Source of the DNA: Candidatus Omnitrophota bacterium | GTDB taxonomy: Bacteria; Omnitrophota; Gorgyraeia; Zapsychrales; Fredricksoniimonadaceae | Direction of reading: 5' to 3' | Length of the DNA: 64,000 nucleotides | Assembly (NCBI GenBank): GCA_028865345.1 | Contig: JAGWKL010000003.1 | Coordinates: 128,184 to 192,183 of the forward strand | Part shown: in pieces, positions 6,309 to 64,000 of the stretch | Layout: each line of letters starts with the position of its first letter | Position numbering within the stretch: the stretch's first letter is position 1 | Position numbers and translations under genes: made by a program | Notes under the pieces: model-generated | The model's database searches: none | Told to the model about the DNA's origin: nothing | Seen by the model: the letters and a program-made list of their open reading frames with translations, nothing else

Positions 6309-8050
6309 ACTTTGCCAATATCAACCACTGCTGGGGAAGCCTGATCATCGAAGAGCTTTCGCGCCTGGGGGTGGATTATTTCTGTGTAGCCCCGGGTTCG
6401 CGCAGTTCGCCTTTGGTCATTCCGTTGGCCCAAAAAGGCTTGAAGAGTTTTGTACATTTCGATGAGCGCGGCCTTGCTTTTCATGCCATGGGCTACATTG
6501 CCGCAACCAGGAAACCTGCGGTGATCATCAGCACGTCAGGCACGGCCGGAGCGAATTTTTATCCGGCGATTATTGAGGCTTCAAAGAAAAAACTGCCGCT
6601 CATCGTCATCACCGCCGACAGGCCGCCGGAATTAAGGCAAACCGGCGCCGTGCAGACCATTGACCAGGTCGGGTTATATGGGAAGTATGTGTGTTGGGCG
6701 ATGGACATGCCCTGCCCGGATACCAAGATCAGCCCGGAGTTTGTCCTGACAACCGTGGCCCAGGCGTGGTACCAGGCGCTGAGGCATCACAGGCCGGTGC
6801 ACATCAACTGCATGTTCCGCCAGCCGCTGGCCCTCACAGCCGGCCGGGAAAACCTTAAAACCTACCTTAAATCTTTGGATAGGTGGGCCGCCTCGCAAAA
6901 GCCCTATACGGAATATGCTACGGGCTTTGGGCCGGCCCCTTTAGCTGTCCCTAAGAAAATAGCGGCACGGCTTCAGGCCATCAAGAACGGCGTCATCGTC
7001 GTCGGCAGGCTCGCAAGTGCCGAAGAAGGCGGGCTGGTCGTGGCCCTGGCTGAAAAGTTAGGCTGGCCTGTTTTTGCGGATGTCTCTTCGGGGCTGCGTT
7101 TGGGGCACGCCCGGGGATGTTTGATCCATTATTTCGATCATCTGTTATCGTCAGATCAATTGGCCGGGAAATTGAATTTTGACGGGGTGCTTCATCTGGG
7201 GGGACGGATGACGTCGGTGCGTTATTACGACTTTATTCAAAAACGACGGCCTGCGGAATATATCATGGTCATCAACCACGCCTTGCGCAACGACCCCAAC
7301 CATCAGGTCACCTTGCGCGTTGAATCCGGTGTCGGTCATTTTATTCAGACGGTCATCAGGTTTATCAAGGCGCGCAAAGGCTCCCGCGCGTTGAAGATTT
7401 TGTCCAAAGCCGATGAGGCCGCCGACCGATCGATCGAAAAGTCTTTTGTCCACGATGAAGCTCTCAGCGAACCCCGCGTGGCCCGTCTGGTTTCTCAGCT
7501 GGTGCCTGCAGGCCAGGGGCTTTTCTTAAGCAACAGCATGCCCATCCGTGATATGGCCAATTTTGCGGATTTTAAAGGCAACCCGGTCCTTGTCAACGCC
7601 AATCGCGGGGCGAGCGGCATCGACGGCATTATTGCTTCCGCCGCGGGATATGCCCGAGGGTCGGGCAGGCCCGCCACCTTGATGATCGGCGATCTGGCCG
7701 CCTTGCATGACCTTAATTCCCTGGGCATGCTTGGCGCTCTGTGCGTGCCTTTGGTCATCGTGGTCCTCAACAACGCAGGAGGGGCCATCTTTTCTTTTTT
7801 GCCGATCGCCGGATTCAAGGAAGGCTTTGAAAAGTTTTGGGCCGCGCCGCATTCTTACACCCTGGAGGCGGCGGCCCAAATGTTCGGGCTCGGTTACAGG
7901 CGGCCCATGGGTGCGGGGCAGTTTAAGAAAGATTATGCCCGGGCGCTCGGATCCCGGATTTCAACGGTCATTGAAGTCATGACCAACCGGGAAGAAAATT
8001 TAAGAATACATAAGCAATTGCAAGAGACTATCCATAAAGTCATTTCATAG
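6305..8050 (+). CDS. menD: 2-succinyl-5-enolpyruvyl-6-hydroxy-3-cyclohexene-1-carboxylate synthase (MenD, ThDP-dependent)
   Basis: ThDP-enzyme architecture (GSRSSPL, GDLAALHDLNSL, VLNNAGGAIF) and length 581 aa. Confidence 0.85.
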   Translation: MNFANINHCWGSLIIEELSRLGVDYFCVAPGSRSSPLVIPLAQKGLKSFVHFDERGLAFHAMGYIAATRKPAVIISTSGTAGANFYPAIIEASKKKLPLIVITADRPPELRQTGAVQTIDQVGLYGKYVCWAMDMPCPDTKISPEFVLTTVAQAWYQALRHHRPVHINCMFRQPLALTAGRENLKTYLKSLDRWAASQKPYTEYATGFGPAPLAVPKKIAARLQAIKNGVIVVGRLASAEEGGLVVALAEKLGWPVFADVSSGLRLGHARGCLIHYFDHLLSSDQLAGKLNFDGVLHLGGRMTSVRYYDFIQKRRPAEYIMVINHALRNDPNHQVTLRVESGVGHFIQTVIRFIKARKGSRALKILSKADEAADRSIEKSFVHDEALSEPRVARLVSQLVPAGQGLFLSNSMPIRDMANFADFKGNPVLVNANRGASGIDGIIASAAGYARGSGRPATLMIGDLAALHDLNSLGMLGALCVPLVIVVLNNAGGAIFSFLPIAGFKEGFEKFWAAPHSYTLEAAAQMFGLGYRRPMGAGQFKKDYARALGSRISTVIEVMTNREENLRIHKQLQETIHKVIS

Positions 8051-11941: not shown

Positions 11942-13878
11942 AAAGCCTGTGGAATGACAAAGAAGCTGTAAAATCAGGACCAGACGCTCTCGCCTTGCGC
12001 GTTTATACCTCGCGGTTGCTTGGGCGCAAGCCGGGCCTCGTCATGCACGGAGGGGGAAACACATCGGTCAAGGCCGAGGTGAAGGACTTTTTTGGCCGAA
12101 AGCAGGAAGTGATTTATATCAAGGCCAGCGGTTGGGATCTGGCCACGATCAAATCCGAAGGTTTTGCGGCGGTCAAAATGGATGCGCTTCTGGCAATGGC
12201 GGCCATGAAGCAATTGAGCGACACGGACATGGTGCGCGGGCAGAGGGCCGCCATGCTTGATCCTTATGCGCCCAACCCTTCAGTGGAAGCTATTCTTCAT
12301 GCCATTATCCCTTATAAGTACGTGGACCATTCGCATGCCGATGCTGTGGTGACCATCACCAACACCCCCGATGGAAAACGGCGCATCCAAGAGATTTACG
12401 GCACTCGTGTATTGATTGTCCCTTACGTGATGCCCGGATTTGTTTTGGCGCGCAAGGTTTATGAAGTGACGCGAGGGGGCGATTGGTCCCGATACGACGG
12501 CATGATTTTATTAAACCACGGCCTTTTTACCTTCGCAAACAGCGCCAAAGAAAGTTATGAGAACCATATCAGGCTGGTCACCAAGGCCGAACAATACATA
12601 AAGAAGAGGAACATTAAATTGGCGTCCGCCAAGCCCATGCCAGACGATTTGGTAGGATTGGCCCGTCTTCGACGGGCGGTGAGCCGCGTTCAGGGCGGAG
12701 CCGTGGTGGCGTTATTAAAAGATGACGCTCGCAGCGTCGGTTTCAGCCGGTTGTCCAAAGTCAATAATTTAGCCGCACGCGGGACCCTGACCCCGGACCA
12801 TGTGATCCGTACCAAGTCTAAGGCCGTTATCATTCATAAAAATGTTGAAACGGATGTGAATGAATACGCGAGAACTTATAAAGAATATTTTGACCGGCAT
12901 GCGGGAGATCAATTGAAATGTTTGGATCTGGCGCCGCGCTGGGCCGTATGGCCAGGCCATGGGGTGGTGACTTTCGGTCGTTCCCCGAACGAAGCTGCGA
13001 TTGTCGGCGATATCGTTGACCATACCCTGCCGGCCATCCAACGGGCAGAGGTTATGGGAGGCTGGAAGACCATAAGTGAAAACGATCTCTTTGATGTCGA
13101 ATATTGGGAATTGGAACAAGCCAAGTTGTCTAGAAACCCGAAGCCTAAAGGCTTAATCGGGAAAGTCGCTTTGGTGACGGGCGCCGCTTCGGGTATCGGC
13201 AAGGCTTGCAAAGAGTGTTTACAGGCTGAAGGAGCCAATGTGGTCGGTTTGGACATTAAAAGCGGCCCCGATCATATGCAGTGTGATGTGACCCGGGAAG
13301 CGCAAGTCAGGAAAGCCGTTGAACATACCGTGCGCCGTTTCGGAGGACTGGATATCATCGTCAGCAATGCCGGGGTTTTTCCGCCGAGCATGAACATCGA
13401 GTCAATGCAGCCGTCAGCCTGGGAGAAAAGCCTGCAGTTAAATTTAACCGGTCACCAGTACCTGATCAAGCACGCCATTCCTTATTTGACTTACGGCATT
13501 GACCCGGCGATCGTCATCATCGCCTCCAAAAATGTTCCCGCTCCCGGCCCGGGCGCTGCGGCTTATTCCGTCGCTAAAGCAGGGCTGACACAGTTAGGCA
13601 GGGTGGCGGCCCTGGAATTGGGGGCCAAAGGAGTCCGGGTCAACATGGTCCATCCCAATCAGGTCTTTGATACCGCCATATGGACCAGGGACGTTCTTGA
13701 GAAACGCGCCAGACATTACGGCATGTCCGTTGAGGAATACAAGACCAGTAATATCCTGCATACAACCATCACTTCAAAAGATGTGGCCCAACTCGTCTGC
13801 GCCATGGCCGGTCCGGCCTTTGCCAAGACCACCGGTTCACAAATTCCTATCGACGGCGGCAATGAAAGGGTTATTTAA
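11938..13878 (+). CDS. Bifunctional class II aldolase/adducin-domain plus short-chain dehydrogenase (rhamnulose-1-phosphate aldolase/SDR-like)
   Basis: N-terminal MKSLWNDKEA...LALRVYTSRLLGRKPGLVMHGGGNTSVK is characteristic of this bifunctional family. The C-terminal SDR domain has GKVALVTGAASGIGKA and YSVAKAG motifs. Confidence 0.8.
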   Translation: MKSLWNDKEAVKSGPDALALRVYTSRLLGRKPGLVMHGGGNTSVKAEVKDFFGRKQEVIYIKASGWDLATIKSEGFAAVKMDALLAMAAMKQLSDTDMVRGQRAAMLDPYAPNPSVEAILHAIIPYKYVDHSHADAVVTITNTPDGKRRIQEIYGTRVLIVPYVMPGFVLARKVYEVTRGGDWSRYDGMILLNHGLFTFANSAKESYENHIRLVTKAEQYIKKRNIKLASAKPMPDDLVGLARLRRAVSRVQGGAVVALLKDDARSVGFSRLSKVNNLAARGTLTPDHVIRTKSKAVIIHKNVETDVNEYARTYKEYFDRHAGDQLKCLDLAPRWAVWPGHGVVTFGRSPNEAAIVGDIVDHTLPAIQRAEVMGGWKTISENDLFDVEYWELEQAKLSRNPKPKGLIGKVALVTGAASGIGKACKECLQAEGANVVGLDIKSGPDHMQCDVTREAQVRKAVEHTVRRFGGLDIIVSNAGVFPPSMNIESMQPSAWEKSLQLNLTGHQYLIKHAIPYLTYGIDPAIVIIASKNVPAPGPGAAAYSVAKAGLTQLGRVAALELGAKGVRVNMVHPNQVFDTAIWTRDVLEKRARHYGMSVEEYKTSNILHTTITSKDVAQLVCAMAGPAFAKTTGSQIPIDGGNERVI

Positions 13879-15078
13879 TTATCTCCGGCGCAGGCGCATG
13901 CGGCGCGGTGTCTGAAAAGCCATGACCGGCGCCTTGGGCTGATGGAATTTCTCCAAAGGTATGGTGGGGTGGCTTTGGGCCACGGGAAGGGTCTGGTTGA
14001 TAATGCGTTCGATGTTTTTGACGTCCAGCCGCTGGTCAGGAGTGGCAAAGGAAGCGGCATGGCCGGCAAAACCCGCGCGGCCGGTGCGGCCGATGCGGTG
14101 GACGTAATTTTCCGGATCATCGGGCAGGTCGTAATTGATGACCAGCTCTATGCCTTTGACATCGATGCCGCGCGCGGCGATGTCCGTAGCCACCAGAATG
14201 CGGTATTTCCCGCGCTTGAAGCCTTCCAAAGCCTCCTTGCGCTGTCCCAAAGAGCGGTCTGAATGTGTTTCCGCGGCATTATGCTTCGCGTGGCGCAATT
14301 GCCTGGTCAGACGCGCTACGCCGAATTTGGTACGGCAAAAGATCAGCACCGATCCTTTATATTGGGCCAGCGTACTTTCCAATAATTGGTTTTTAAATTC
14401 TTTGCGCACGATGAACAGTTCCTGGGAGATCTTGTCCGCCATGGTGCCGGCAGGCGCCACTTCCACGCGCACGGGTAGTTTCATATAGCTTTTGGCAATG
14501 TTCACGATCGTTTCCGGCATGGTCGCTGAAAAGAGCATGGTTTGCCTGTCCTGAGGGACTTGCTTGAGCAGGGTGGCGATCTGGGGCCCAAAGCCCATGT
14601 CCAGCATGCGGTCGGCTTCGTCCAGGACCAGGATATGGATGTCGTGAAGGTTTAAGGTTTTCTGCTGCATGTGGTCGATCAGGCGGCCGGGGGTACCGAT
14701 CAAAATGCGCGGGTGCGAGCGCAGGTGTTGGATCTGTTTGCCCATGGAATCCCCGCCGATCAAGACCACGGTGCCCATTCCCAGGGCGGTGGCTATCTTG
14801 CGTAGGCTCTCATCGACCTGAATGGCCAATTCGCGGGTGGGGACAACCACCAGGGCGCGGCCCTTGATCTGGGCCAGGCGCTGGATCAAAGGGATGCCGA
14901 AGGCAATGGTCTTGCCTGTGCCGGTCTGGGCAATGCCCATGACATCCTGGCCTTGCAGCCCTATCGGAATGGCCTGATACTGAATTTTAGTGGGGGTCGT
15001 GAATTTTAAACGTTCGATGACGCTTAAAATTGCGGGAGCGATGCCTAATCCGTAAAAGTTGGGTTCGTTTTGAGACAT
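13879..15078 (-). CDS. DEAD-box ATP-dependent RNA helicase
   Basis: AQTGTGKT (motif I), VLDEADRMLDMGF (DEAD), SAT, HRIGRTGRAG motifs; its stop codon abuts the stop of the convergent upstream gene. Confidence 0.9.
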   Translation of the reverse strand: MSQNEPNFYGLGIAPAILSVIERLKFTTPTKIQYQAIPIGLQGQDVMGIAQTGTGKTIAFGIPLIQRLAQIKGRALVVVPTRELAIQVDESLRKIATALGMGTVVLIGGDSMGKQIQHLRSHPRILIGTPGRLIDHMQQKTLNLHDIHILVLDEADRMLDMGFGPQIATLLKQVPQDRQTMLFSATMPETIVNIAKSYMKLPVRVEVAPAGTMADKISQELFIVRKEFKNQLLESTLAQYKGSVLIFCRTKFGVARLTRQLRHAKHNAAETHSDRSLGQRKEALEGFKRGKYRILVATDIAARGIDVKGIELVINYDLPDDPENYVHRIGRTGRAGFAGHAASFATPDQRLDVKNIERIINQTLPVAQSHPTIPLEKFHQPKAPVMAFQTPRRMRLRRR

Positions 15079-15175
15079 AATTGACTTTCTTTTTTAACTG
15101 TTTGTAAGGCCAACAGCCTAACACTATTTGGCCGAATATGCAAGGACTGCCAATTTCGTTGGCGTTTGAAGATGA

Positions 15176-16828
<1,653 letters not shown>

Positions 16829-16926
16829 AAGCGATTTACGGAGAGGCGGGTCGAATCGTGGAAAAACATTCGGCGACACGACACCTCTCCCTTTCTGGAA
16901 ATTATTTGATATAGTTGTTTTTGGTC

Positions 16927-17018
16927 GGAGAGGTGGCCGAGTGGTTTAAGGCGCGCGCCTGGAAAGCGCGTGGACGCCGAAAGGCGTCTCGGGAGTTCGA
17001 ATCTCCCCTTCTCCGCCA
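16927..17018 (+). tRNA. tRNA-Ser (anticodon GGA), type II with long variable arm, CCA encoded
   Basis: Acceptor GGAGAGG/CTTCTCC; anticodon arm CGCGC-CTGGAAA-GCGCG gives GGA; long variable arm; T-loop TTCGAAT. Confidence 0.85.
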
Positions 17019-17066
17019 GTTTTTGAGCAGCAGTTACAAACATCTCAGGCCCTCATTATAAATAGA

Positions 17067-17116
17067 TTACAACTTTCATTGCAACTGTTTGTAACGAAGT
17101 TGTAATTTTTTATTTC
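17067..17116 (+). terminator. Inverted repeat TTACAACTT / AAGTTGTAA followed by a T-run; possible terminator or regulatory hairpin downstream of tRNA-Ser
   Basis: 9-bp perfect inverted repeat separated by 21 nt, followed by TTTTTTATTT. Confidence 0.35.
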
Positions 17117-17238
17117 CGTTTCCCTCCCATCGGCAGGAAGTTTTCGCGAGTACATGGGGAAATTGAGTGTTAAATAGGGTTTTTTGGTTATAATAAGGAA
17201 TTGAATGAAATTATAATCATATAAAAAAGGAAGAGAAT

Positions 17239-42239: not shown

Positions 42240-44243
42240 ATGTCCAAAGCTTTGGTCATCGTCGAGTCACCTGCCAAGGTCAAGACGATCAATAAAATTT
42301 TAGGATCCAAATTCAAGGTCACGGCCTCCATGGGGCATCTGATCGATTTGCCGAAATCAACCCTGGGCGTCGACGTGGACCACGATTTTGAGGCCAAATT
42401 CATCGTGGTGCGTGACAAGCAGAAGACCATGACCAAGTTGAAAAAAGAGGCTAAGGACGCGCAGGAGATCTATATCGCCACCGACCCCGACCGTGAAGGC
42501 GAGGCCATCGGCTGGAATCTGATCGAGCATATCGCCAAGGGTAAGAAGGTCAGCCGGGTGGTTTTTCATGAGATCACCAGGGACGCGGTCAAGAAGGCCT
42601 TTTTGCATCCACGGGAGTTCAACCGTAAACTCGTGGACGCCCAAAATGCCAGGCGCGTCTTGGACCGCATGGTCGGCTACCAGATCAGCCCTTTGTTGTG
42701 GGAAAAGGTGGGTTCCCGTCTCAGCGCCGGCCGCGTGCAATCCGTCGCCCTGCGGTTGATTGTCGAGCGTGAGGAGGCCATCAGGGTTTTTGTGCCCCAG
42801 GAATACTGGCAGATCGCCGTCGACCTGCAGAAAGAAGGCCTCAAGGATGTCATCACCGCCAATCTGGAAAAGGTCAATGGCGAAAAGACGGATCTCAAAG
42901 ACCAGTCACAGACTAAAAAGATCGTCGGTGAATTAAAGGAGTCGGTTTTCAAGGTGTCTGCCATCAACACCAGGCAGGTGAAGCGCAACGCGCCGCCCCC
43001 GTTTATCACCAGCACCCTGCAGCAGGAGGCTTTCGGAAAATTGGGCTTCAACACCTCCAAGACCATGTCCATTGCTCAGGAACTTTATGAAGGCATTGAG
43101 ATCGGGGACAAGGAGCCTGAAGGCCTGATCACGTACATGCGTACGGATTCCGTCAACATTGCAGCCGAGGCCATAGAAAAAGTCAGGGGGATGATAGGCC
43201 GGGAGCATGGGTCTGATTACTTGCCCCAGCAGCCCAATAAATTCAAGTCCAAAAAAAGGGCCCAGGAAGCCCATGAAGCCATCCGTCCCAGCGATGTTTC
43301 CCGCAAACCGGAAGACCTCAAGCGCTATCTTACCGACGATCAATACCGCTTGTATGATCTTATTTGGAAAAGGTTCGTCAGCTGCCAGATGGTGAGCGCT
43401 GTTTTTGAGCAAACCAAGATCGAGATTGCCGCAGGCCCCGCCCATGGGGGGGCAAGCCGGTTTCAATTCGGAGCATCGGGTTCTATTTTGGCTTTTCCGG
43501 GCTATTTGACGATGTACAGGGACAATGACGACCAGGACATCAAGCTGGATCCTTCTTTATATGCCGAGGGCGATGCGCTCAATCTTCAGGAGGTCAAGCC
43601 TACCCAGCATTTTACCAAACCGCCGGGGCGGTATTCGGAAGGCACCCTGGTCAAGGCCCTGGAAGAGCAGGGCATCGGACGGCCTTCGACCTATGCGTCG
43701 ATCATCCAGACCCTGGTTTACCGCAATTATGTCCTGCGTGACCGGGGCTATTTTACAGCGACGGAGCTGGGTATCCGGATCTGCCGCCTGCTCATGGAAT
43801 ATTTCAAAAAGATCATGGACATAGGCTTTACCGCCCTCATGGAAGAGGAATTGGACTCCATTGAAGAAGGGGACAATGTTTATGCCAAGGTGCTGGCAGA
43901 TTTCTGGGGGCCTTTTAAAGAGGACCTGGATTTCGCGAAAGGCCATATCCAAAAGACGCAGATCACCATTGATAAACCCTGCCCGGAATGCGGCAAACCC
44001 ATGGCGGTCAAGTGGGGGCGGCGGGGGCGTTTTATCAGTTGTACGGGTTTCCCCGCCTGTAAGCATGCGGAACCTTTTATGACAGGCGTTAAATGTCCCT
44101 CGCCCGGTTGTACGGGGGAGTTGGTGGAGCGCCGTTCCCAGAGAGGGGCCCTTTTTTACGGCTGCAGCCGTTATCCGGAATGCAAATTCATTGCCAATAA
44201 GCTGCCTGTTGGGCCATCGGCGGAACCTGCCGCCAACCCATGA
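42240..44243 (+). CDS. topA: DNA topoisomerase I
   Basis: MSKALVIVESPAKVKTINKILG TOPRIM N-terminus, active-site Tyr region, C-terminal Cys4 zinc ribbons. Confidence 0.95.
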   Translation: MSKALVIVESPAKVKTINKILGSKFKVTASMGHLIDLPKSTLGVDVDHDFEAKFIVVRDKQKTMTKLKKEAKDAQEIYIATDPDREGEAIGWNLIEHIAKGKKVSRVVFHEITRDAVKKAFLHPREFNRKLVDAQNARRVLDRMVGYQISPLLWEKVGSRLSAGRVQSVALRLIVEREEAIRVFVPQEYWQIAVDLQKEGLKDVITANLEKVNGEKTDLKDQSQTKKIVGELKESVFKVSAINTRQVKRNAPPPFITSTLQQEAFGKLGFNTSKTMSIAQELYEGIEIGDKEPEGLITYMRTDSVNIAAEAIEKVRGMIGREHGSDYLPQQPNKFKSKKRAQEAHEAIRPSDVSRKPEDLKRYLTDDQYRLYDLIWKRFVSCQMVSAVFEQTKIEIAAGPAHGGASRFQFGASGSILAFPGYLTMYRDNDDQDIKLDPSLYAEGDALNLQEVKPTQHFTKPPGRYSEGTLVKALEEQGIGRPSTYASIIQTLVYRNYVLRDRGYFTATELGIRICRLLMEYFKKIMDIGFTALMEEELDSIEEGDNVYAKVLADFWGPFKEDLDFAKGHIQKTQITIDKPCPECGKPMAVKWGRRGRFISCTGFPACKHAEPFMTGVKCPSPGCTGELVERRSQRGALFYGCSRYPECKFIANKLPVGPSAEPAANP

Positions 44244-45100
44244 TCAAATATCTGGACAAATTTTTTACCTATCTTGAAGTAGAAAAGAATTATTCCGGCC
44301 ATACCATCCTGAATTACCGCCTTGACCTGGAGGAGTTTGCACGGTTTCTTGATCAAATGCCCGTCACAAAAGTGGAGTACTCGGACCTACGCCGCTTTTT
44401 GGGCCAAATGAAGAACCGGAATTTGAAACCGCGTTCCGTGAGCCGCAAGCTTTCAGCCTTGCGCTCTTTTTTTAAGTTCCTTCAACGCGAAGGCGTCCTC
44501 CAATCCAATCCGGCCAAACTGTTGGTCACCCCGAAATTGGACAAACCGCTGCCGCATTTCATGACGGAAGAAGAGACCGTACGAATCATCGAGGCGCCCC
44601 AAAGCAACAAGGTAAGCGCCCTGCGGGACAAGGCTATTCTTGAGATCCTTTATTCGACCGGCATCCGGGTCAGTGAGCTGGTGGGCCTGCAGGCGGACGA
44701 CGTGGATTTTATCGGCAATATCATCAAGGTCAAGGGCAAGGGCAAGAAAGAGCGCATGGTCCCCGTGGGGGACAAGGCCCTGGATGCTTTAAAAGAGTAC
44801 TTGGACAAACGCCAAGCCAATCATAAGTCCGTCTTTCTTAATAAAAATGGTACGCCGTTGACGGACCGCAGCGTGCGCAATATCATCAATAAATATATTC
44901 TCCAGCAGTCCTTGAGCCAGCACGTCACGCCCCATATGTTCCGCCATTCTTTTGCAACGCACCTTCTGGATCATGGCGCCGATCTGCGTTGCGTGCAGGA
45001 GCTTTTGGGCCATGTCAATCTCTCCACCACCCAGATCTACACCCACCTGACCACCGAAAAGCTCAAAAAAGTCTACGACCGGGCCCATCCCCGGGCATAA
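44240..45100 (+). CDS. xerC: Tyrosine recombinase XerC/XerD family
   Basis: R...HxxR...Y catalytic residues (HMFRHSFATHLL, LGHVNLSTTQIYTH); 286 aa. Confidence 0.9.
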   Translation: MIKYLDKFFTYLEVEKNYSGHTILNYRLDLEEFARFLDQMPVTKVEYSDLRRFLGQMKNRNLKPRSVSRKLSALRSFFKFLQREGVLQSNPAKLLVTPKLDKPLPHFMTEEETVRIIEAPQSNKVSALRDKAILEILYSTGIRVSELVGLQADDVDFIGNIIKVKGKGKKERMVPVGDKALDALKEYLDKRQANHKSVFLNKNGTPLTDRSVRNIINKYILQQSLSQHVTPHMFRHSFATHLLDHGADLRCVQELLGHVNLSTTQIYTHLTTEKLKKVYDRAHPRA

Positions 45101-57487: not shown

Positions 57488-58612
57488 ATGATGCAACAGG
57501 TCAGCCGGCAAAATAAGATCCGCATCGTGAACTTGAATCCCGGATGTGAGCCTTCAGGGATCCTGTTGAATAAAATTGTCATGTTTTTGCGCGTCAATGG
57601 TTATGAGTACACTTTTGACACGGAAGCGTCGTGCGATGTCGTTTTGATCAACAGTTGCTGCGTGTCCAACGCCATGATGTCAAAGATGAAAATAATGATC
57701 TCTGAGACCCTTGAGGAGGGGCAGGTTAAGAAAGTCATTATTTTCGGTTGCTTTGTTCCTTTCGCCGAAGACAGGGGGAATGATGCGCGGGTTATAATGA
57801 TCGGGCCGAAAGAGGCGGAGGAATTCGATCAATTGTTTGCGCACAGGATACCCATCGGACATGTCCCTGCCGGCCGCTTGAATTCCCGCTTGTTCAGGCC
57901 GCATCAACTCATGGATGCCGATGAGGACTATTTTGTACTGATTTGCCAGGGATGCACGCAAAACTGCAGTTACTGTAATATCAAGCGGGCCAAGGGCCGC
58001 ATCACCAGCCGCAGCGCGGAGCAGATCATCAAGGATATTCAGCAGGGGCTTAAGGAGGGCAAGAAGAACTTCGTTCTTGTAGGGGACGATTGCGGAAGTT
58101 ACGGTGTGGATCTAAAGACCGATTTGGCGTGCCTGGTCAGGGAGATCATTGACGCATGTCCGGACATTCGATTAAAAATCAATTATGTCTACCCCGGCCG
58201 TTTGATACATCTTTTTCCCTCCCTTGCGGGCAGTATTGTTTCGGGTAAAATCATTTATATGTGCGTTCCCCTGCAGTCAGGTTCAAAAAGAATTTTGAAA
58301 TTGATGAACCGGGACTATGACCTGGGCCGTTTAAGGGACATCGTGACGGAGATTAAAAAGATCGCCCCTTCTCTTTGGATCTATACCCATATGATCGTCA
58401 ATTTCCCGACAGAGACAATGGAAGATCTCGAGGACACATTACAGGCGGCCGAATGGTTTGATGATTTCGTTCTTTTTAATTATTCGGATAATCCCATGAC
58501 CGCGGCAAGCAGGTTTTACCCGAAAGTGGAAGGCCAAGAACAGGCCCAACGTTTAAGAGTTTGTATGAATAGGATCAAAAACATCCATTGCGGCAGGCTG
58601 GACCAGATTTGA
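57488..58612 (+). CDS. Radical SAM protein of the MiaB/RimO-like methylthiotransferase family, lacking a TRAM domain
   Basis: N-terminal MTTase-domain cysteines (NPGCE, NSCCV, FGCFVP) plus radical SAM CTQNCSYC (CxxxCxxC); 374 aa with no C-terminal TRAM-like extension. Confidence 0.75.
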   Translation: MMQQVSRQNKIRIVNLNPGCEPSGILLNKIVMFLRVNGYEYTFDTEASCDVVLINSCCVSNAMMSKMKIMISETLEEGQVKKVIIFGCFVPFAEDRGNDARVIMIGPKEAEEFDQLFAHRIPIGHVPAGRLNSRLFRPHQLMDADEDYFVLICQGCTQNCSYCNIKRAKGRITSRSAEQIIKDIQQGLKEGKKNFVLVGDDCGSYGVDLKTDLACLVREIIDACPDIRLKINYVYPGRLIHLFPSLAGSIVSGKIIYMCVPLQSGSKRILKLMNRDYDLGRLRDIVTEIKKIAPSLWIYTHMIVNFPTETMEDLEDTLQAAEWFDDFVLFNYSDNPMTAASRFYPKVEGQEQAQRLRVCMNRIKNIHCGRLDQI

Positions 58613-58747
58613 ATTAAATCATCCTAATAAATAATTTATCTACCCGAAAAAATCCATATACAGCCTGTAAATTTATTGTATAATTCGAATTCAGTTCATG
58701 GCTTGGTGGAATATGAATAAGGCTATGCTATACTTTGCTATCGCTTC

Positions 58748-58786
58748 GCTGGATTAGCTTAAGTTGGTAGAGCAGCTGATTTGTAA
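58748..58786 (+). pseudogene. tRNA-Thr(UGU)-like 5' fragment (acceptor 5' strand, D-arm, anticodon 5' stem and loop only); probable integration-site remnant
   Basis: GCTGGAT-TA-GCTT-AAGTTGGTA-GAGC-A-GCTGA-TTTGTAA closely parallels bacterial tRNA-Thr(UGU) up to position 38. Downstream sequence cannot pair to complete the anticodon stem, T-arm or acceptor. Confidence 0.45.
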
Positions 58787-58907
58787 AGCCTCCGAAAAAA
58801 TTTCCGCAACATGCTCCAATTCTTGTATTTAGGTCTACTGCCAATAAGTTACGAGAAAATTTGTTAGACACATTTTGCTACAAAATGGCCTGTTTTGGCA
58901 TCCTTTT

Positions 58908-59023
58908 TAGCACGCCGTTAGCACATTTTTGAACCTTAAGAAACTGAGTATCACTCAGCTTATTCAACTAAAGGGACAATAAATGGGTATTTTAATAGCC
59001 CTGCATAGCACGCTATTAGCACA
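58908..59023 (+). repeat. Two 18-nt direct repeats TAGCACGCCGTTAGCACA / TAGCACGCTATTAGCACA (each containing a TAGCAC-N5-TAGCAC internal repeat) 98 nt apart, upstream of the higBA promoter
   Basis: Repeats at 58908-58925 and 59006-59023. Further palindromes CATTTTG-CTA-CAAAATG (58871-58887) and CTGAGT-ATC-ACTCAG (58943-58957) lie in the same spacer. Confidence 0.45.
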
Positions 59024-59032
59024 CAAGCTTCT

Positions 59033-59060
59033 TGACAAATATCTCAATATGAGATATACT
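59033..59060 (+). promoter_or_regulatory. higBA promoter (TTGACA-16-TATACT) with overlapping 8-3-8 palindromic operator ATATCTCA-ATA-TGAGATAT
   Basis: -35 59033-59038; -10 59055-59060; perfect palindrome 59039-59057 between/overlapping them; GAGGAGG SD at 59071-59077. Confidence 0.6.
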
Positions 59061-59082
59061 TCTACCAGATGAGGAGGTAAAG

Positions 59083-59373
59083 ATGCATGTTATATCAAGG
59101 AGGGCGTTACAGGTCTTTTGGGAAAAGTATCCAGACAGCGAAGAGCCCCTTAAGGTCTGGTTTAAGATTATCAGGTTATCAGAATACGAAGGATTTAATG
59201 ATTTGAAGAAAACATTTGGTTCGGTAGACAAAGTCGGAGACAAATATGTGTTTAATATCGGGCGCAATAAGTATCGGTTGATTACAGCCATCCATTTTAA
59301 TGTCGGAAGGGTTTACATACGGGCTGTTTTGACACATAAAGAGTACGATAAAGAGGAGTGGAAAAATGGTTAA
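59083..59373 (+). CDS. higB: Type II toxin HigB (RelE/ParE-fold mRNA interferase)
   Basis: MHVISRRALQVFWEKYPDSEEPLKVWFKIIRL...VFNIGRNKYRLITAIHFNVGRVYIRAVLTHKEYDK is a near-canonical HigB; toxin gene precedes antitoxin. Confidence 0.9.
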   Translation: MHVISRRALQVFWEKYPDSEEPLKVWFKIIRLSEYEGFNDLKKTFGSVDKVGDKYVFNIGRNKYRLITAIHFNVGRVYIRAVLTHKEYDKEEWKNG

Positions 59374-59770
59374 AACAATCAATGAACCGGTTTTGAAAAA
59401 GACTTGGCCTGCCGTTGAGCAACATCTCTCTATTCATACAAAACAGGATTATAACAATGCCATTGCTGTGCTTAATCGTTTGTTAGATGAAGTTGGTGAT
59501 AATGACAGGCATCCTCTGTATGGCTTTTTAGAGATTTTGGGCATTGTTATAGAAAACTATGAAACAGAACATCATCATTGGGAAGATGCGTCAGGGGTTG
59601 AGGTGCTTAAAGTTTTAATGGAAGAGCACAATCTAAACCAAGCCGATCTTCCTGAAATAGGTTCCCAAGGAGTTGTTTCAGAAATATTGAACGGTAAAAG
59701 ACAATTAAATGTGAACCAGATCAAGAAATTAGCCGAAAGATTTAATGTAGGCCCAGCTGTTTTTTTATGA
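59366..59770 (+). CDS. higA: Antitoxin HigA (XRE-family HTH)
   Basis: Overlaps higB by 8 nt; C-terminal HTH ...NQADLPEIGSQGVVSEILNGKRQLNVNQIKKLAERFNV. Confidence 0.85.
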   Translation: MVKTINEPVLKKTWPAVEQHLSIHTKQDYNNAIAVLNRLLDEVGDNDRHPLYGFLEILGIVIENYETEHHHWEDASGVEVLKVLMEEHNLNQADLPEIGSQGVVSEILNGKRQLNVNQIKKLAERFNVGPAVFL

Positions 59771-59926
59771 AAGAATTAAACGGCGGGCTTTGCGCTGGCC
59801 ACAAACATTTCGCATAAATTCGTAACCAACAATTGATTATTTGTTAAAACCAACAAATTCATAATTTAACATTTGTTACCTAACAATATAGACTATTTTA
59901 GTAGTTGTTTGGTAATAGGAGGGGTT

Positions 59927-60247
59927 ATGCGTGGTGTTATTAAAGGGGTGTTGGCAGAAGAATTGCAAAATTCTTTGCGGATGCAAAAGGATTATGAATC
60001 CGCTTTGTCAAAATTACCACAAGGATGCCTTGTTCAAAAGAGAATCAGGGGACATCTGTATTGGTATATAGTGAAAAGAGAGGGGAATAAGGTAAAGCAT
60101 TTATACAAAGGCAAACTATCATCAGAAGAAATTAATAAATATCAGGAGGCCAAATCTCTCAGGGCTCAATATCGTCACGCGTTATCTAAGCTTAAGAAGC
60201 AGATTAAGTTCTTAAAAGGGGTGTTACGTGGAAAAGAGCCAATATAA
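59927..60247 (+). CDS. Small basic hypothetical protein (R-G-H-L-Y-W-Y ... R-E-G-N-K-V-K-H-L-Y-K-G-K motif; C-terminal coiled-coil), mobile-element-associated type
   Basis: AGGAGGGG SD then ATG 59927. The motif resembles a small-protein family (possibly DUF6788) that I recall from mobile-element contexts. It is preceded by TTGTTA/TAACAA palindromes. Confidence 0.45.
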   Translation: MRGVIKGVLAEELQNSLRMQKDYESALSKLPQGCLVQKRIRGHLYWYIVKREGNKVKHLYKGKLSSEEINKYQEAKSLRAQYRHALSKLKKQIKFLKGVLRGKEPI

Positions 60248-60446
60248 TTTATGCGTTGCAATATTAATAAGGCTTAGATGCCAGATGGATGCCAAGAAAT
60301 TATCAGTCTACGGAGAAGACGTATCGTTCGCAATGAGAAACGGCCCCCCGCGGCAACCTCACGTATTTCCAGCCTGATTGTCATTCTCCGTCGATAAATT
60401 CAATATTCTTGCTTTTAGATTGTTTAGGATTTTTTAGGTTTCCTTG

Positions 60447-60464
60447 ATTGTGACCAGTCACAAT
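60447..60464 (+). promoter_or_regulatory. Perfect palindrome ATTGTGAC-CA-GTCACAAT, candidate operator ~40 nt upstream of membrane-protein paralog A
   Basis: 8-bp arms with a 2-nt centre, read from sequence. Confidence 0.45.
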
Positions 60465-60504
60465 TTAGACACCAAAAACGATGCGGTCTATCCGGGGGGG
60501 TAAT

Positions 60505-60906
60505 ATGATCCGAAACTTTTGCTCTAAACTGGCTGACTATAACTACCGAGTCCTTTGGGCAGAGGCTGTGGTTTTGTCCGTGATCATTGGTGCCGGACTG
60601 GCCTCCTGGCCGGGCGTTATTGTGCTTCTGGCGGTCCTGACATGGGTTTTGGACCGAAAGCAGGGGAAAGTACTGCTTATAGGCCTTTTTAGCCTGACCT
60701 GGGGCCTGCTGGCTGGAATGATAGGTTTTGGTTTAGGTGGATGGGCCTGGGCTCTGTTATTGGGCAGCCTGGCCTTGATAAGCGGGGTGAAGATCCATTG
60801 CCGGGATTTGAAAAGGCCCTTTGTTCAGGCTTATAACGATTTTAAGATGCTAAATGCTAAGGAATTGAGAGAGAGCTGGATTATAGGAAGACAAAATTTA
60901 AATTAG
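60505..60906 (+). CDS. Small polytopic membrane protein, paralog A of a three-member family in this island
   Basis: G-rich SD before ATG 60505; ~4 predicted TM helices; glycine-rich GFGLGGWAWALLLG segment. Homologous to the 62433-62846 product and the 62043-62150 fragment. Confidence 0.6.
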   Translation: MIRNFCSKLADYNYRVLWAEAVVLSVIIGAGLASWPGVIVLLAVLTWVLDRKQGKVLLIGLFSLTWGLLAGMIGFGLGGWAWALLLGSLALISGVKIHCRDLKRPFVQAYNDFKMLNAKELRESWIIGRQNLN

Positions 60907-61069
60907 AGTCAATATGTTACGAAAGTAAACCATTTAAACAATTTTGTTTCTCTCCGTTCATTTTCTACAGAAAATATCATAATTTGATATCATAAATCTA
61001 AGGATGCCACAGGAGATATCAGATGCGTCCTTATTCATAATTCAAATTGGGACGAGGAAGGATAATTAA

Positions 61070-61789
61070 ATGTGTTTACCTGAGCCGCCTAAATGGAAAG
61101 AAGATGCAATTACAAAATTTATTGGGGATGTACAGCACAATGCTTACGTTACATTTGTTAAATATTCAACTGAGTTTTCCCGTTTAATTGAGGTCGATAG
61201 CCTATTCCGAGAAGCGATTGGTTGTACCAATAATGCCAAATTTTGGTTTGCTTGTTTATTTCCTTTAAAAGCGCATTCGGCATTTTTGAGTGCTGTTCAA
61301 TTAATAATGGGTACTCAAGCGCAAGAATCGTACATGGTGATGAGGGGGACTATTGAAAATGCATTGTACGGCTACTATATTTTTAAACATAAAGAATTGG
61401 CCGAAGTGTATTTAAAAAGAGACGAAAATTTACAAACCAAACGAGAGATGAAAAAAAGATTCCAGAATAAAGCAATTATTGAGGAATTAAAGGCAGACGA
61501 AATGTCATTGGGAAGTGCGGTAGAAATATTATATGAAAGGGTGATTGATTTTGGTGCACACCCAAATGAGAAATCATTATCATCAGCGTTGAAGAGAACA
61601 GATTTAAAAGATGGTGTCCGATTTGACGTCAGTTATTTAACAGATAATCCTAAGGTAATAGAGCTTGGCTTAAAGACGGTAACCCAAGTGGGTATAGCTT
61701 GTGTTAAAATAATAGAGTTGCAATTTCCGGAAAGATTTAAGATTGTTGGTCTATCAGATAAGATTCAATCGATTAGTCGGTTTTTTTAA
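61070..61789 (+). CDS. Hypothetical 239-aa soluble protein, low-GC, with R-x6-H motif (ERVIDFGAHPNE) suggestive of a HEPN-type domain
   Basis: GAGGAAGG SD 7 nt upstream; no TM or signal peptide; a strong intrinsic terminator lies 64 nt downstream. The HEPN assignment is from the motif only. Confidence 0.6.
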   Translation: MCLPEPPKWKEDAITKFIGDVQHNAYVTFVKYSTEFSRLIEVDSLFREAIGCTNNAKFWFACLFPLKAHSAFLSAVQLIMGTQAQESYMVMRGTIENALYGYYIFKHKELAEVYLKRDENLQTKREMKKRFQNKAIIEELKADEMSLGSAVEILYERVIDFGAHPNEKSLSSALKRTDLKDGVRFDVSYLTDNPKVIELGLKTVTQVGIACVKIIELQFPERFKIVGLSDKIQSISRFF

Positions 61790-61852
61790 GACGTACTGAT
61801 TTGTAAACTAAAAAAGCTCCAAAACGCAATTTCTTCAAAATCAATAACTTAA

Positions 61853-61885
61853 CCCTTTCACCGTCGGTGGAAGGGTTTTTTATTT
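61853..61885 (+). terminator. Rho-independent terminator after the 239-aa gene
   Basis: CCCTTTCACCG-T-CGGTGGAAGGG (11-bp stem, one G-U) followed by TTTTTTATTT. Confidence 0.6.
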
Positions 61886-61958
61886 GCCAACCATCAGGTA
61901 TGATTACGCCTCATTGGGTATGCAAAGTGGACACCAATACGGACACCAAAGATAGACC

Positions 61959-62025
61959 GTCATTCTGAGCGAAGCGAAGAATCTCTAAAAGAACAACCCA
62001 TGTCATTCCCGCGAAAGTGGGAATC
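61959..62025 (+). repeat. Two related ~25-nt hairpin elements GTCATTC...GCGAA...GAATC (second is ATTCCCGC-GAAA-GTGGGAAT with a GNRA loop), plus tandem GGACACCAA repeats just upstream
   Basis: 61959-61983 and 62002-62025; GGACACCAATACGGACACCAA at 61927-61947. Confidence 0.35.
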
Positions 62026-62042
62026 CAGAAACGGAGGAATAA

Positions 62043-62150
62043 ATGTTAAATAAATTTAAAGATCATAATTACCGGGTTTTGTGGGTTGAGGCCGTGGTTT
62101 TGGCGGTGATTATTAGAGTGGAGTCATGTTGGGTTTATCACCAAAAATAA
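62043..62150 (+). pseudogene. Truncated paralog B of the small membrane-protein family (35 codons: MLNKFKDHNYRVLWVEAVVLAVII... then unrelated tail and stop)
   Basis: About 75% nt identity to codons 10-33 of paralog A (KLADYNYRVLWAEAVVLSVII); own GGAGGAA SD; homology ends abruptly near 62130. Confidence 0.5.
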
Positions 62151-62154
62151 CGAC

Positions 62155-62183
62155 TTGACATCATTCATGATTAAATTTACTAT
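62155..62183 (+). promoter_or_regulatory. Candidate promoter TTGACA-17-TACTAT for paralog C
   Basis: -35 62155-62160, -10 62178-62183; direct repeats CAGACTGATG at 62318-62327 and 62370-62379 lie in the leader. Confidence 0.35.
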
Positions 62184-62432
62184 TGCCTTTTATAATGTTT
62201 ATAAAAATCGTTCCATTCGTATTAGCATCATTCCTTCTCTTCAATCTTCCTTAGTTTTGCTGACTTAACTGCTAGTCAACAGATGAGCGGTCAGTTCCGC
62301 GCCAGTGAAAATCAGTTATCCAGACTGATGCTCTATGCTTTTAATCGTCAGTCCTTTGATTTAACGCAGACTGATGGTTCACATGTTTTGTGTCATAGCA
62401 CACTTTTAAACTGAATTAGAACGGGGGATGAT

Positions 62433-62846
62433 ATGTTAGAACTTATCAGAAAGGGTGCAAAATTAAGCGAAGAAAATCGTCCATTGCTTTGGTCCGAAGT
62501 GGCGTTATTTTCAGTATTGGCTGGCTTAGTATGTCATTCATGGGTAGTTTTTATTTTAGTTGCTGCCATGTTGTCGTGGGTTATGACCACACGCAATGGC
62601 ATGTTTTATATAATTTTTGCAATAAGTATATTATGGGCATTGATGCCAGCCTGCTGGGGGCTTGCTGGTGGAGGCTGGCTCTGGGCGCTTATTGTAGGTG
62701 GGACAGTTCTATTATGGGCTTTTAAGGTTCATGTCAATGGACTCAAATGGCAATGGGATGAACTAGTCTATAAAAGCGATAATACTGTTGAATGGAAGCA
62801 AATGTTTTGGAGTGGCCCCAACGCAAATCGGATTCCTCGTGTATAA
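62433..62846 (+). CDS. Small polytopic membrane protein, paralog C (same family as 60505-60906)
   Basis: Alignable with paralog A over about 100 aa (LWSEVALFSVLAGL..., GLAGGGWLWALIVGG); ~4 TM. Confidence 0.6.
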   Translation: MLELIRKGAKLSEENRPLLWSEVALFSVLAGLVCHSWVVFILVAAMLSWVMTTRNGMFYIIFAISILWALMPACWGLAGGGWLWALIVGGTVLLWAFKVHVNGLKWQWDELVYKSDNTVEWKQMFWSGPNANRIPRV

Positions 62847-62948
62847 AATTTGACTTTTTAGACAAGAGACCATAAAATACTAAAAATTGAAAGCAGTGGT
62901 GCCGTTTGAGGGGTAAATCCGCCACTTTAAAATAACTAAACACCTCCG

Positions 62949-63311
62949 TTGGACGCAATGTGTCTGGCGGGGGATTTTTTATTTATTATGGGAATTCCTG
63001 ATTTGGATACAGTAAGGGGGAAGATTCAAGATTGGGGGATTAAAAATCCTCGGATCATCAGGGCATACTTGTATGGTTCTTTTTTAACCAAAAAGAAATC
63101 TTCACCTGGGGATATTGATATAGCTATAGAAATAAGCAGCCAGAAGAATGATACTGCCTCCGGATTTTGGTGTGGAGAAGGTAAGAAAATGGAAGAGGAA
63201 CTATCAATCCTTTTAGCATATAAGGTCGACTTAGAGTGGTTAAACGATAGATCGCACATTGTAAAAAAAGGATTGGCTGACGGATCGTTATTGATTTATG
63301 AGGCAGGTTAG
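62949..63311 (+). CDS. Minimal nucleotidyltransferase (MNT, Pol-beta superfamily), the antitoxin-type partner of HEPN/MNT modules; no adjacent HEPN gene
   Basis: YLYGSFLTKKKSSPGDIDIAIE (GS-x9-13-DxD) motif; an alternative start at 62988 (MGIPDLDT) is possible. Confidence 0.65.
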   Translation: MDAMCLAGDFLFIMGIPDLDTVRGKIQDWGIKNPRIIRAYLYGSFLTKKKSSPGDIDIAIEISSQKNDTASGFWCGEGKKMEEELSILLAYKVDLEWLNDRSHIVKKGLADGSLLIYEAG

Positions 63312-63326
63312 GAGTAGAATTGCCAC

Positions 63327-63755
63327 ATGACAAAGGTCATTGAAATATTTAAGGTTGATATTGCCCTCAAAAAGTCTTTACCGTTGTATCTTTCCAGCAT
63401 TAAGGCCGGGTTTCCTTCGCCGGCAGAAGATTATTTAGACAAGAAACTGGACTTAAACGAGCATTTGATCAAGCATCCGACATCCACCTTCTTTGTGAAG
63501 GTCAAGGGGGATTCGATGGTGGGCACCGGTATCAATTCTGGAGATATTCTCATTGTTGACCGGTCCATCGAGGCCAAGAGCGGCAAGGTCGTTGTCGTTA
63601 TCCTTAACGGTGAGTTTACCGTCAAAAGATACCAGAAAAGGCAGGACAGGGTCTTTCTGCTGGCGGAAAACCCTGAGTACGGGCCTATCGAGATCGTTGA
63701 CGGGATGGACTTTGAGATTTGGGGAGTTGTGCTTCATGTGATTCATTCGGTATAG
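63327..63755 (+). CDS. umuD: UmuD/LexA-like S24 peptidase (translesion-synthesis UmuD-type)
   Basis: GDSMVGTGINSGDILIVD Ser nucleophile and downstream K in GEFTVKRY; 142 aa. Confidence 0.8.
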   Translation: MTKVIEIFKVDIALKKSLPLYLSSIKAGFPSPAEDYLDKKLDLNEHLIKHPTSTFFVKVKGDSMVGTGINSGDILIVDRSIEAKSGKVVVVILNGEFTVKRYQKRQDRVFLLAENPEYGPIEIVDGMDFEIWGVVLHVIHSV

Positions 63756-63767
63756 GAGAGGTGAGCA

Positions 63768-64000
63768 GTGAATAAGGTACTGGCAAACAAGATAGCGATC
63801 CTTAAAAAGAAACTTGAATCCCAAGCGGTCAATGTCCCTGATGACGTTATCCTTTACATTGCCCAAAAAACAAAAACTGCTGAACTTGTTGAAACCCTAA
63901 TCCATGTAATAGTGTACTCAATCGTAGTAGAAAGCCCTATTACGCTTGTCCTTGCCGAAAAGGCCTTAAAATCACCTAAGTATATTCTTGCGATAAGACG
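63768..64000 (+). CDS. Partial ORF (5' end only; continues beyond window), unknown function, not UmuC-like
   Basis: GTG 63768, open to window end (77 codons: VNKVLANKIAILKKKLESQAVNVPDDVILYIAQKTKTAELVETL...); GAGAGGTGAG SD-like upstream. Confidence 0.3.
   Translation, partial: MNKVLANKIAILKKKLESQAVNVPDDVILYIAQKTKTAELVETLIHVIVYSIVVESPITLVLAEKALKSPKYILAIR

Follow-up and report, generated by a model that had tools for sequence, protein, structure and literature searches.

A probable mosaic accessory island in a Candidatus Omnitrophota genome, with membrane-protein genes behind tRNA 5′-half leaders and a HEPN-fold gene

Genes and leaders at the locus

To understand the origin of an unusual cluster of small genes, we analysed a 2.4-kb stretch of DNA (positions 60447-62846) within 64,000 nucleotides of a Candidatus Omnitrophota bacterium genome (contig JAGWKL010000003.1; this whole segment is referred to as the window). 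The stretch contains two intact genes and one truncated copy of a family encoding small inner-membrane proteins (A, C and B, respectively), together with a gene encoding a soluble protein of 239 amino acids (aa). An initial annotation, made from the letters alone, had proposed that these genes form one undescribed toxin/immunity or defence module in which the 239-aa protein, read as a HEPN ribonuclease, is the partner of the membrane proteins. Our analysis points instead to a mosaic accessory island of unrelated passengers, which we consider the probable explanation of this layout. The genes and leader units concerned are as follows:

60303-60504, + strand: leader unit of copy A (alignment of 22 leaders)
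60505-60906, + strand: membrane paralog A, 133 aa, A-type subfamily
61070-61789, + strand: 239-aa soluble HEPN-fold protein, between A and the leader of B
61790-62042, + strand: leader unit of copy B (alignment with other leaders, terminator scan)
62043-62150, + strand: copy B, first 24 codons of an A-type gene
62433-62846, + strand: membrane paralog C, 137 aa, C-type subfamily

The 239-aa open reading frame (ORF) is intact, and products of the locus have identical public proteins in a Candidatus Omnitrophica metagenome-assembled genome (MAG; locus tags KGJ09_03550 and KGJ09_03555). As initially described, this ORF is low in guanine plus cytosine (GC) content, 35% against 51% for the window; gene A has a GC content of 49%, the backbone 0.54 and the rest of the region from 58.2 to 63.3 kb 0.31-0.42. 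Rfam gave no match at E<=1 across 58500-64000, and ARAGORN detected no tRNA in the region, nor in the comparison loci that hold tRNA fragments only. Comparison loci are denoted below by L-numbers; L011 and L016 are paired, L007 and L019 lie on one contig, and L024 and L033 are both on Ga0206950_1021.

Independent distribution of the two protein families

Every comparison locus was searched by tblastn with A, B, C and the 239-aa protein. A relative of the 239-aa protein within 6 kb was found in none of the approximately 20 distinct membrane-family loci, and the membrane family was found in none of 36 other loci of the 239-aa family (4 from MAGs or metagenomes, 2 from conjugative plasmids of Rhizobium, and 31 from IMG/VR, including one that dropped under the tblastn threshold on re-test); the window is the only place where both occur together. 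The proposal of a single module, which had been made dependent on the two families occurring together in other genomes, is not supported by this result. Likewise, the recurrent neighbours of the membrane genes are not HEPN proteins, as the initial annotation would have it, but an integrase and a HigB/RelE-type toxin-antitoxin pair. Arrays and fragments of membrane genes recur independently of the 239-aa gene, since L007 contains two tandem A-type genes and a C-terminal C-type fragment but no 239-aa gene. This fragment of 19 codons (L007 8470-8526, equivalent to L019 7498-7554) lies 3′ of the second tandem A-type gene and is another recombination scar within the membrane family.

The gene of the 239-aa family stands alone in all loci examined, without a recurrent neighbour, and the family spans many phyla, on prophages, plasmids and islands. 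Its neighbours include integrases, SieB, DUF4238 and a DpnII restriction-modification set, as well as P2-type tail genes, SRAP, SIR2_2 and UvrD/GajB-like proteins; on the plasmids, genes for a CHAT protein, a Shedu nuclease and an HNH endonuclease lie close by. Such surroundings are typical of an accessory or 'moron' gene residing in variable-gene hot spots. No NTP_transf_2, Polbeta or MNT family is present among the 25 listed of 46 matching neighbour families (103 proteins from 30 other loci of the 239-aa family). In one locus on a 429-kb contig (L005 8001-8743), the homologue is frameshifted into ORFs of 141 and 115 aa, and this split gene is flanked by DUF4238, SieB, an integrase and the DpnII restriction-modification set.

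The membrane-protein family

The initial description of A and C as paralogous genes encoding proteins with four membrane helices is borne out. The two proteins share 35% identity over 97 aa (E=1e-18), and both are predicted from hydropathy and an AlphaFold model (predicted local distance difference test score of 71 for A) to contain four membrane helices followed by a charged amphipathic C-terminal helix. Copy B is indeed a truncated remnant, with homology confined to the N-terminus of A (16 of 22 aa, or 73%, matching A residues 7-28; 78% nucleotide identity between 62065-62114 and 60539-60588); beyond its codon 24, B is unrelated in sequence and soon reaches a stop. Protein A has a predicted N-in/C-in topology, with 14 lysine plus arginine residues inside versus 0 outside, and C has the same topology, its lysine and arginine residues likewise being confined to one side. 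We had considered a dual-topology pair of the SMR/EmrE or Fluc/CrcB type for A and C; since both are N-in/C-in and their charge biases are not opposite, they do not form such a pair.

The family is highly conserved (66% mean column identity), and its invariant positions include E20 in the first membrane helix, S34-W35, W82 and K96-x-H98. A-type proteins form 61 clusters at 60-100% identity, in which all source-named members are from Candidatus Omnitrophica, as are both source-named proteins among the 26 C-type relatives. Among GTDB species representatives, the family is present in no more than three, of which one bears the label 'uncultured Planctomycetales'; it is found only in a few Omnitrophota (Omnitrophota-type MAGs and metagenome contigs). 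Protein A has no match in Pfam, NCBIfam or PADLOC, the family was not found in IMG/VR or GenBank phages, and a structure search with the membrane protein returned nothing specific. A weak match to an uncharacterised phage family, phrog_15014, was obtained (E=1e-4).

The 239-aa protein has a HEPN-type fold

Modelling of the 239-aa protein gave a confident structure containing a four-helix up-and-down bundle of the HEPN type, and HEPN domains are its best structural matches. The HEPN superfamily (UPF0332/AF0298 2hsb, TT1696 1ufb, sacsin HEPN 3o10, HepT 5yep/7ae2) provides its nearest known counterparts. It differs from them in being about double a HEPN domain in size, in having an additional helical hairpin at the N-terminus as well as a beta-hairpin, and in lacking both a conserved Rx4-6H motif and an adjoining MNT gene. 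Foldseek of the model against PDB gave no significant match, nor did a profile search against PDB sequences; Pfam HEPN families showed no match at the sequence level and NCBIfam yielded nothing useful. The HEPN identity suggested by the initial annotation therefore holds at the level of fold, but not for the R-x6-H ribonuclease motif that had been read in the segment ERVIDFGAH. R157 of this segment is arginine in 84 of 163 relatives and H164 is invariant; no other conserved R-x4-6-H was found among these relatives. The invariant or near-invariant residues of the same set are R92, E96, Y100, Y155, G162, H164, P165 and N166; R92, E96 and Y100 share one helix, and a loop holds G162-A-H164-P-N166.

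Pfam DUF5677 (PF18928) matches residues 66-144 at 17.8 bits (E=0.0035; gathering threshold 27.1), and 12 of 40 sampled relatives match it at E<=0.01, the best at E=4.8e-6. By these scores, the protein is a distant relative of DUF5677 rather than a member. Both families, DUF5677 itself being uncharacterised, have genes that stand alone in mobile or defence-type contexts, and the 239-aa family is a separate, longer branch. DUF5677 is reported to be among the domains enriched beside serine recombinases in defence islands (bioRxiv 10.1101/2025.10.07.681051). In PHROGs, the 239-aa protein matches the uncharacterised phrog_36906 (E=1e-9); tblastn detected no match in GenBank phages, and relatives are present in IMG/VR. 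The family is very large, comprising 1,916 representatives at 50% identity, 735 of which have E<=1e-30, and a few members carry N-terminal fusions to helix-turn-helix (HTH), DUF4062 or DUF4325 domains. A search of PADLOC-DB 2.0 returned no match at E<=1 for A, C or the 239-aa protein. Taken together, the HEPN fold, the invariant polar residues and the genomic contexts suggest that the 239-aa protein may act alone, as a nuclease-type defence or abortive-infection effector, through a putative site formed by the invariant R92/E96/Y100/H164-P-N residues.

A leader containing a tRNA 5′ half precedes the membrane genes

Nearly all membrane-family genes are preceded by a conserved leader of approximately 200 nt, which was seen twice in the window (60303-60504 and 61790-62042) and in L002, L007, L008, L010, L013, L015, L017, L022, L024, L026, L028, L033, L077 and L078; two leaders stand in tandem in L017, L033 and L007. 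The order of its elements is a tRNA 5′ half, a CYCCGWCGA box, an AT-rich stretch and the palindrome ATTTT-GGACACC-AAAAT, which could be a recombinase core site, of the tyrosine-recombinase type on inspection by eye, or a promoter/operator; by eye, an ECF-sigma or sigma-70 promoter was likewise considered for the leader. The box forms a terminator hairpin in many copies, and the hairpin structure is not conserved across leaders. A leader motif, CA(T/A)TTT(A/G)GACACCAAA, lies at a fixed distance ahead of the start codon of nearly every A-type gene and is also found with the C-type genes of L033, L077 and L078; L011 is without it. Among L001-L034 the motif occurs on the coding strand only, and L077 adds an inverted copy.

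The tRNA parts comprise positions 1 to ~43 and are cut at about 39-43. Some are 41-43/43 identical to intact tRNA-Ser(TGA); others are nearly identical to intact tRNA-Ala(CGC) up to position 39-41, where homology stops, and Thr(TGT)- and Lys(CTT)-like versions are present in other loci. An intact tRNA of the same type as the fragment lies downstream on the same contig in two cases, L078 and Ga0206950_1021, and the leader motif is found 58-62 nt 5′ of intact tRNA-Ser in L024 and of intact tRNA-Ala in L078. No orphan tRNA 3′ fragment was found among the loci searched.

In the window, the leader of A contains a decayed tRNA-Ala(CGC)-like 5′ fragment, whose anticodon loop, TTCGCAA, occupies 60327-60333, together with a CTCCGTCGA box, an AT-rich stretch, the motif TTAGACACCAA at 60465-60475 and a ribosome-binding site. 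What had been annotated as a perfect 18-bp palindrome before A (60447-60464) consists of two perfect 8-nt arms around a 2-nt centre that is not palindromic. The leader of B contains a tRNA-Thr(TGT)-like anticodon remnant, CTGATTTGTAA (61796-61806), a terminator hairpin (61851-61877, 12-bp stem plus T-run), two GGACACCAA motifs at 61926-61950, short hairpin repeats at 61959-61983 and 62002-62026, and a ribosome-binding site. Since the Thr-like remnant starts only 7 nt past the 239-aa stop codon, the hairpin that had been assigned to the 239-aa gene as its strong terminator, although real, is the hairpin box of leader B. On inspection by eye, this hairpin lacks the GTTRRRY R′ box of integron attC sites.

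Several minor features of the leaders were also noted. The hairpin repeats GTCATTCTGAGCGAAGCGAAGAATC and GTCATTCCCGCGAAAGYGGGAATCC, each present once in the window, lie between the leader motif and the ribosome-binding site in many loci (L011 5940-5985, L024 ~5949-5999, L033 205-236/2225-2267/3429-3458, L078 ~7960-7985, and also L026), and in translation correspond to the 'SFPRKRES' extension of protein P0036. Two inverted copies of the leader motif (TAATGTAGATCGAATTTGGACACCAA ... TTGGTGTCCAAAATAGTACTACATTA) stand on either side of a hairpin repeat at L077 7860-7990, an arrangement that looks like a miniature inverted-repeat element. An exact 18-mer of the leader motif, CACATTTTGGACACCAAA, is found in one GC-rich phage group of IMG/VR (L068-L073, L075, L076), immediately 3′ of a terminator; as its 9 IMG/VR matches fall in two independent, unrelated contexts, we regard them as consistent with chance.

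Integrase and toxin-antitoxin neighbours in related loci

A recurrent gene order was observed in related loci: an intact tRNA-Ser, a tyrosine integrase, a RelE/HigB/Gp49-type toxin with an HTH antitoxin, the leader and the membrane gene. This order is found for A-type genes in L010, L011/L016 and L024 and for a C-type gene in L077, in each of which the integrase (PF00589, E=1e-29 to 1e-33) adjoins the intact tRNA-Ser 5′ of the membrane gene; the L077 integrase is 85% identical to that of L024. In L028 an integrase is present together with the 3′ end of a tRNA-Ser, located at the edge of the contig, whereas L008, L017 and L033 contain truncated integrase-like ORFs. The C-type genes of L033, L077 and L078 have the same leader and integrase/toxin-antitoxin neighbours as A-type genes. 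This fixed order in related genomes indicates that the membrane gene is a regular cargo of such elements.

The corresponding series in the window is HigB, HigA, DUF6788, leader and A. The island contains the following additional features:

59083-59373, + strand: HigB toxin (PF09907 HigB_toxin, E=8.6e-28), a low-GC accessory gene 5′ of A
59366-59770, + strand: HigA-type HTH antitoxin (PF01381 HTH_3, E=2e-6)
59873-60247, + strand: DUF6788-type protein, 124 aa (weak PF20586 match of the identical L001 protein)
62155-62183, + strand: sigma-70-like TTGACA-N17-TACTAT site (consensus scan, 10/12 positions match)
62943-62973, + strand: intrinsic terminator 3′ of C (14-bp stem plus T-run)
62988-63311, + strand: orphan MNT/Polbeta-type nucleotidyltransferase (PF18765, E=7e-9), with no HEPN partner adjoining
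63327-63755, + strand: UmuD/LexA-type S24 peptidase (PF00717, E=1.6e-33), where GC content is back up to 0.46

The HigB and HigA genes have a GC content of 0.37-0.39, and toxin-antitoxin pairs occupy the equivalent position 5′ of the membrane gene in L010, L011, L024 and L077; L001, L015 (frameshifted) and L029 have relatives of the DUF6788-type protein 5′ of the membrane gene. The initial recognition of accessory, mobile-type DNA rich in toxin-antitoxin genes was therefore correct, as was that of a downstream MNT gene. The TTG start of the MNT ORF (62949) falls within the terminator of gene C, which makes the ATG at 62988 (107 aa) the likelier start. The MNT protein weakly matches the candidate PDC-S09 in PADLOC-DB and scores 31 bits against NCBIfam MntA, under the 60-bit cut-off. 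The TTGACA promoter that had been assigned to C is present as a site 250 nt 5′ of the gene; it is a consensus match only, in a region whose total of such sites equals the shuffle expectation.

The only integrase-like match in the window is a 27-30% identical recombinase (44240-45100) inside a glycosyltransferase cluster. Immediately after tRNA-Ser(GGA), the window contains a cluster of TTACAAC/GTTGTAA repeats (16927-17150), part of which (17053-17149) is 80% identical to L024 10767-10862, 4.4 kb 3′ of the L024 membrane gene. In L010 (3886-4060), L024 and L077, the interval from tRNA-Ser to the integrase likewise contains inverted TTGTAAC repeats, and repeats of this type may represent arm sites of the integrase or a former att site.

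Mosaic structure among close relatives

Comparison with the closest relatives reveals a patchwork. From far upstream up to ~60489, L001 and the window show 100% identity, after which divergence grows inside gene A; from ~60581 on, L001 is identical to L010, through the DNA past the stop codon. The DNA 3′ of the A stop codon in the window is unrelated to that of L001 and L010, in which the 239-aa gene is missing. The breakpoint between the window, L001 and L010 (~60577-60588) coincides with the end of the homology between B and A (60588 = 62114). Homology of L010 to the window begins exactly at 60327, in the anticodon-loop remnant. The DNA upstream in L010 is syntenic with window 13714-17024, including tRNA-Ser(GGA), and the integrase, toxin-antitoxin genes, leader and A-type gene of L010 follow directly after that tRNA. 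The leader and A thus immediately follow tRNA-Ser(GGA) in L010, whereas in the window 43 kb separate them from this tRNA.

Origin of the island

These results are best accommodated if the low-GC island (~58.2-63.3 kb) was built from remnants of small integrative elements and subsequently reshaped by homologous recombination. The repeated unit, of approximately 0.6 kb, would consist of the ~200-nt leader and a gene for a four-helix inner-membrane protein of ~135 aa. A and C would be two such cargo genes of different subfamilies, B a third module cut after codon 24 by recombination or deletion in the most conserved stretch of the gene, and the 239-aa gene an independent arrival, inserted singly between the A stop codon and leader B. 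The tRNA halves may be scars of site-specific integration; elements that carry a promoter and a tRNA 5′ half and recombine in the anticodon arm would fit the intact tRNAs of L078 and Ga0206950_1021. The membrane proteins, for their part, are probably envelope proteins borne by these elements, with a function independent of the 239-aa protein. They resemble 'moron' or SieB-type exclusion proteins of prophages and islands in being small inner-membrane proteins encoded in their own transcription unit near the integrase/toxin-antitoxin end; they differ in having no similarity to SieB or any named exclusion protein, and no phage structural genes are found in the membrane-gene elements examined. From the position of the gene by the integrase and the weak phrog_15014 match, one might guess at an exclusion-type role.

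The nearest known counterparts of such elements are tRNA-linked P4-type islands and integrative elements with tyrosine integrases. As in these, related loci have an integrase and toxin-antitoxin cargo after an intact tRNA-Ser, with partial tRNA copies in the vicinity, a low GC content and a gene content that varies between close relatives. The partial tRNAs differ, however, in being 5′ halves (1 to ~43) instead of the usual 3′ ends, in lying inside the conserved leader of one cargo gene and in representing four tRNA species. The island is otherwise of an ordinary kind, the tRNA 5′-half leader being its sole unusual part.

Several observations weigh against an origin by element accretion. Classical tRNA-integrating elements leave 3′ tRNA fragments, not 5′ halves. 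Different tRNA types are combined within leader arrays (Ser with Ala or Lys), an arrangement not accounted for by simple tandem integration. The 58-64 kb island of the window contains no integrase, so that the window would hold only a remnant, and the similarity between L024 10767-10862 and window 17053-17149 is accompanied by intervening TetR, isochorismatase and GST genes and by no clear element border. As regards the separateness of the 239-aa gene, the co-occurrence test spans only ±6-10 kb around ~20 membrane loci, with many short contigs, and the terminator scan found none between A and the 239-aa gene, so that the two may be co-transcribed in this genome. With respect to a defensive role of the 239-aa protein, a DUF5677 gene tested in Enterococcus was outside the five ORFs reported as protective against six phages (bioRxiv 10.1101/2025.10.07.681051).

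Could the genes nevertheless function together? A cassette in which the 239-aa protein is a HEPN-like toxin or abortive-infection effector, the membrane proteins provide immunity, sensing or another partner function and B is a decaying spare would suit adjoining genes on the same strand, the absence of a terminator between A and the 239-aa gene, the HEPN-type fold and the surroundings rich in toxin-antitoxin genes. We nevertheless consider it very improbable: the families are never together in ~20 membrane loci or 36 loci of the 239-aa family, the latter is distributed over many phyla, plasmids and prophages without the membrane family, which itself was found only in MAGs and metagenome contigs of Omnitrophota type, no 239-aa gene follows the membrane gene in the nearest relatives (L001 and L010), and PADLOC offers no match. 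Still less credible is a split type VII (HepT/MntA-like) toxin-antitoxin pair formed by the 239-aa protein and the downstream MNT, which the initial annotation had pointed out as an orphan gene. The HEPN fold, the MNT/Polbeta domain with its weak MntA match and a canonical MNT-HEPN pair that adjoins the C-type gene in L034 lend themselves to this idea, yet type VII systems consist of adjacent, co-transcribed MNT and HEPN genes, and here the two are separated by 1.2 kb holding B, C and two terminators. Furthermore, the canonical Rx4-6H is not conserved, the MNT falls short of the MntA cut-off (31 versus 60 bits) and no NTP_transf_2 or Polbeta family is among the listed neighbours of other 239-aa loci described above. 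A kinship between the MNT of the window and that beside the C-type gene in L034 was also considered and set aside, as their similarity is at the level of motifs only.

A more serious contender, although still unlikely, is that A and C are a functional pair of diverged paralogs maintained by selection in the chromosome, for example in a hetero-oligomeric membrane complex, with the leaders being promoter or regulatory regions and the accessory genes incidental. Both subfamilies are represented in the window, on Ga0206950_1021 (L024 and L033) and in one MAG (the KGJ61 prefix is common to P0025 and P0247); the high column identity with invariant E20 in the first membrane helix and K96-x-H98 and the fixed position of the motif before the start codon likewise speak for such a pair. 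In addition, the window, L001, L002 and L027 have in common an A-type gene 3′ of one and the same heptosyltransferase cluster; in L015 just one ORF of the glycosyltransferase cluster is upstream of the A-type gene. On the other hand, considerable distances usually separate A- from C-type genes (19 kb in Ga0206950_1021), which adjoin each other in the window only, the shared N-in/C-in topology is not that of a dual-topology pair, and the position of the module varies among close relatives and is tied to integrases and tRNA fragments.

The mosaic island thus remains the explanation that we favour, and it may be extended in two respects, although we advance both jointly as a tentative proposal, which we think unlikely to be right. 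The leader would be the attachment region of an undescribed family of small Omnitrophota elements that recombine in the anticodon arm of several tRNA species and replace the 5′ half and promoter, as a mirror of the classical 3′-end replacement, with the four-helix membrane gene always as first cargo; and the 239-aa family would be an unrecognised stand-alone defence effector of HEPN fold with a non-canonical R/E/Y...H-P-N site.

Attributing the layout to recombination and the accretion of an island eliminates a spurious candidate for a new type of defence. It also assigns the 239-aa protein to a HEPN-fold family that is very large and unannotated, is found on prophages, plasmids and islands beside defence genes, and is a reasonable target for single-gene defence screens. 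For Omnitrophota mobile DNA, a cargo gene that nearly always lies behind a leader with a tRNA 5′ half is unusual, and this is testable.

Surroundings of membrane genes in other contigs

Many contigs (among L001, L003, L007, L009, L010, L013, L014, L029, L033 and L034) end or start a few hundred bases from the membrane gene, which suggests that assemblies break there, either because the leader and gene are repeated or because the flanks are strain-variable. C-type genes are followed in two loci by huge ORFs without a Pfam domain, of 3,086 aa in L033 (2767-12027) and 1,287 aa in L078 (8655-12518).

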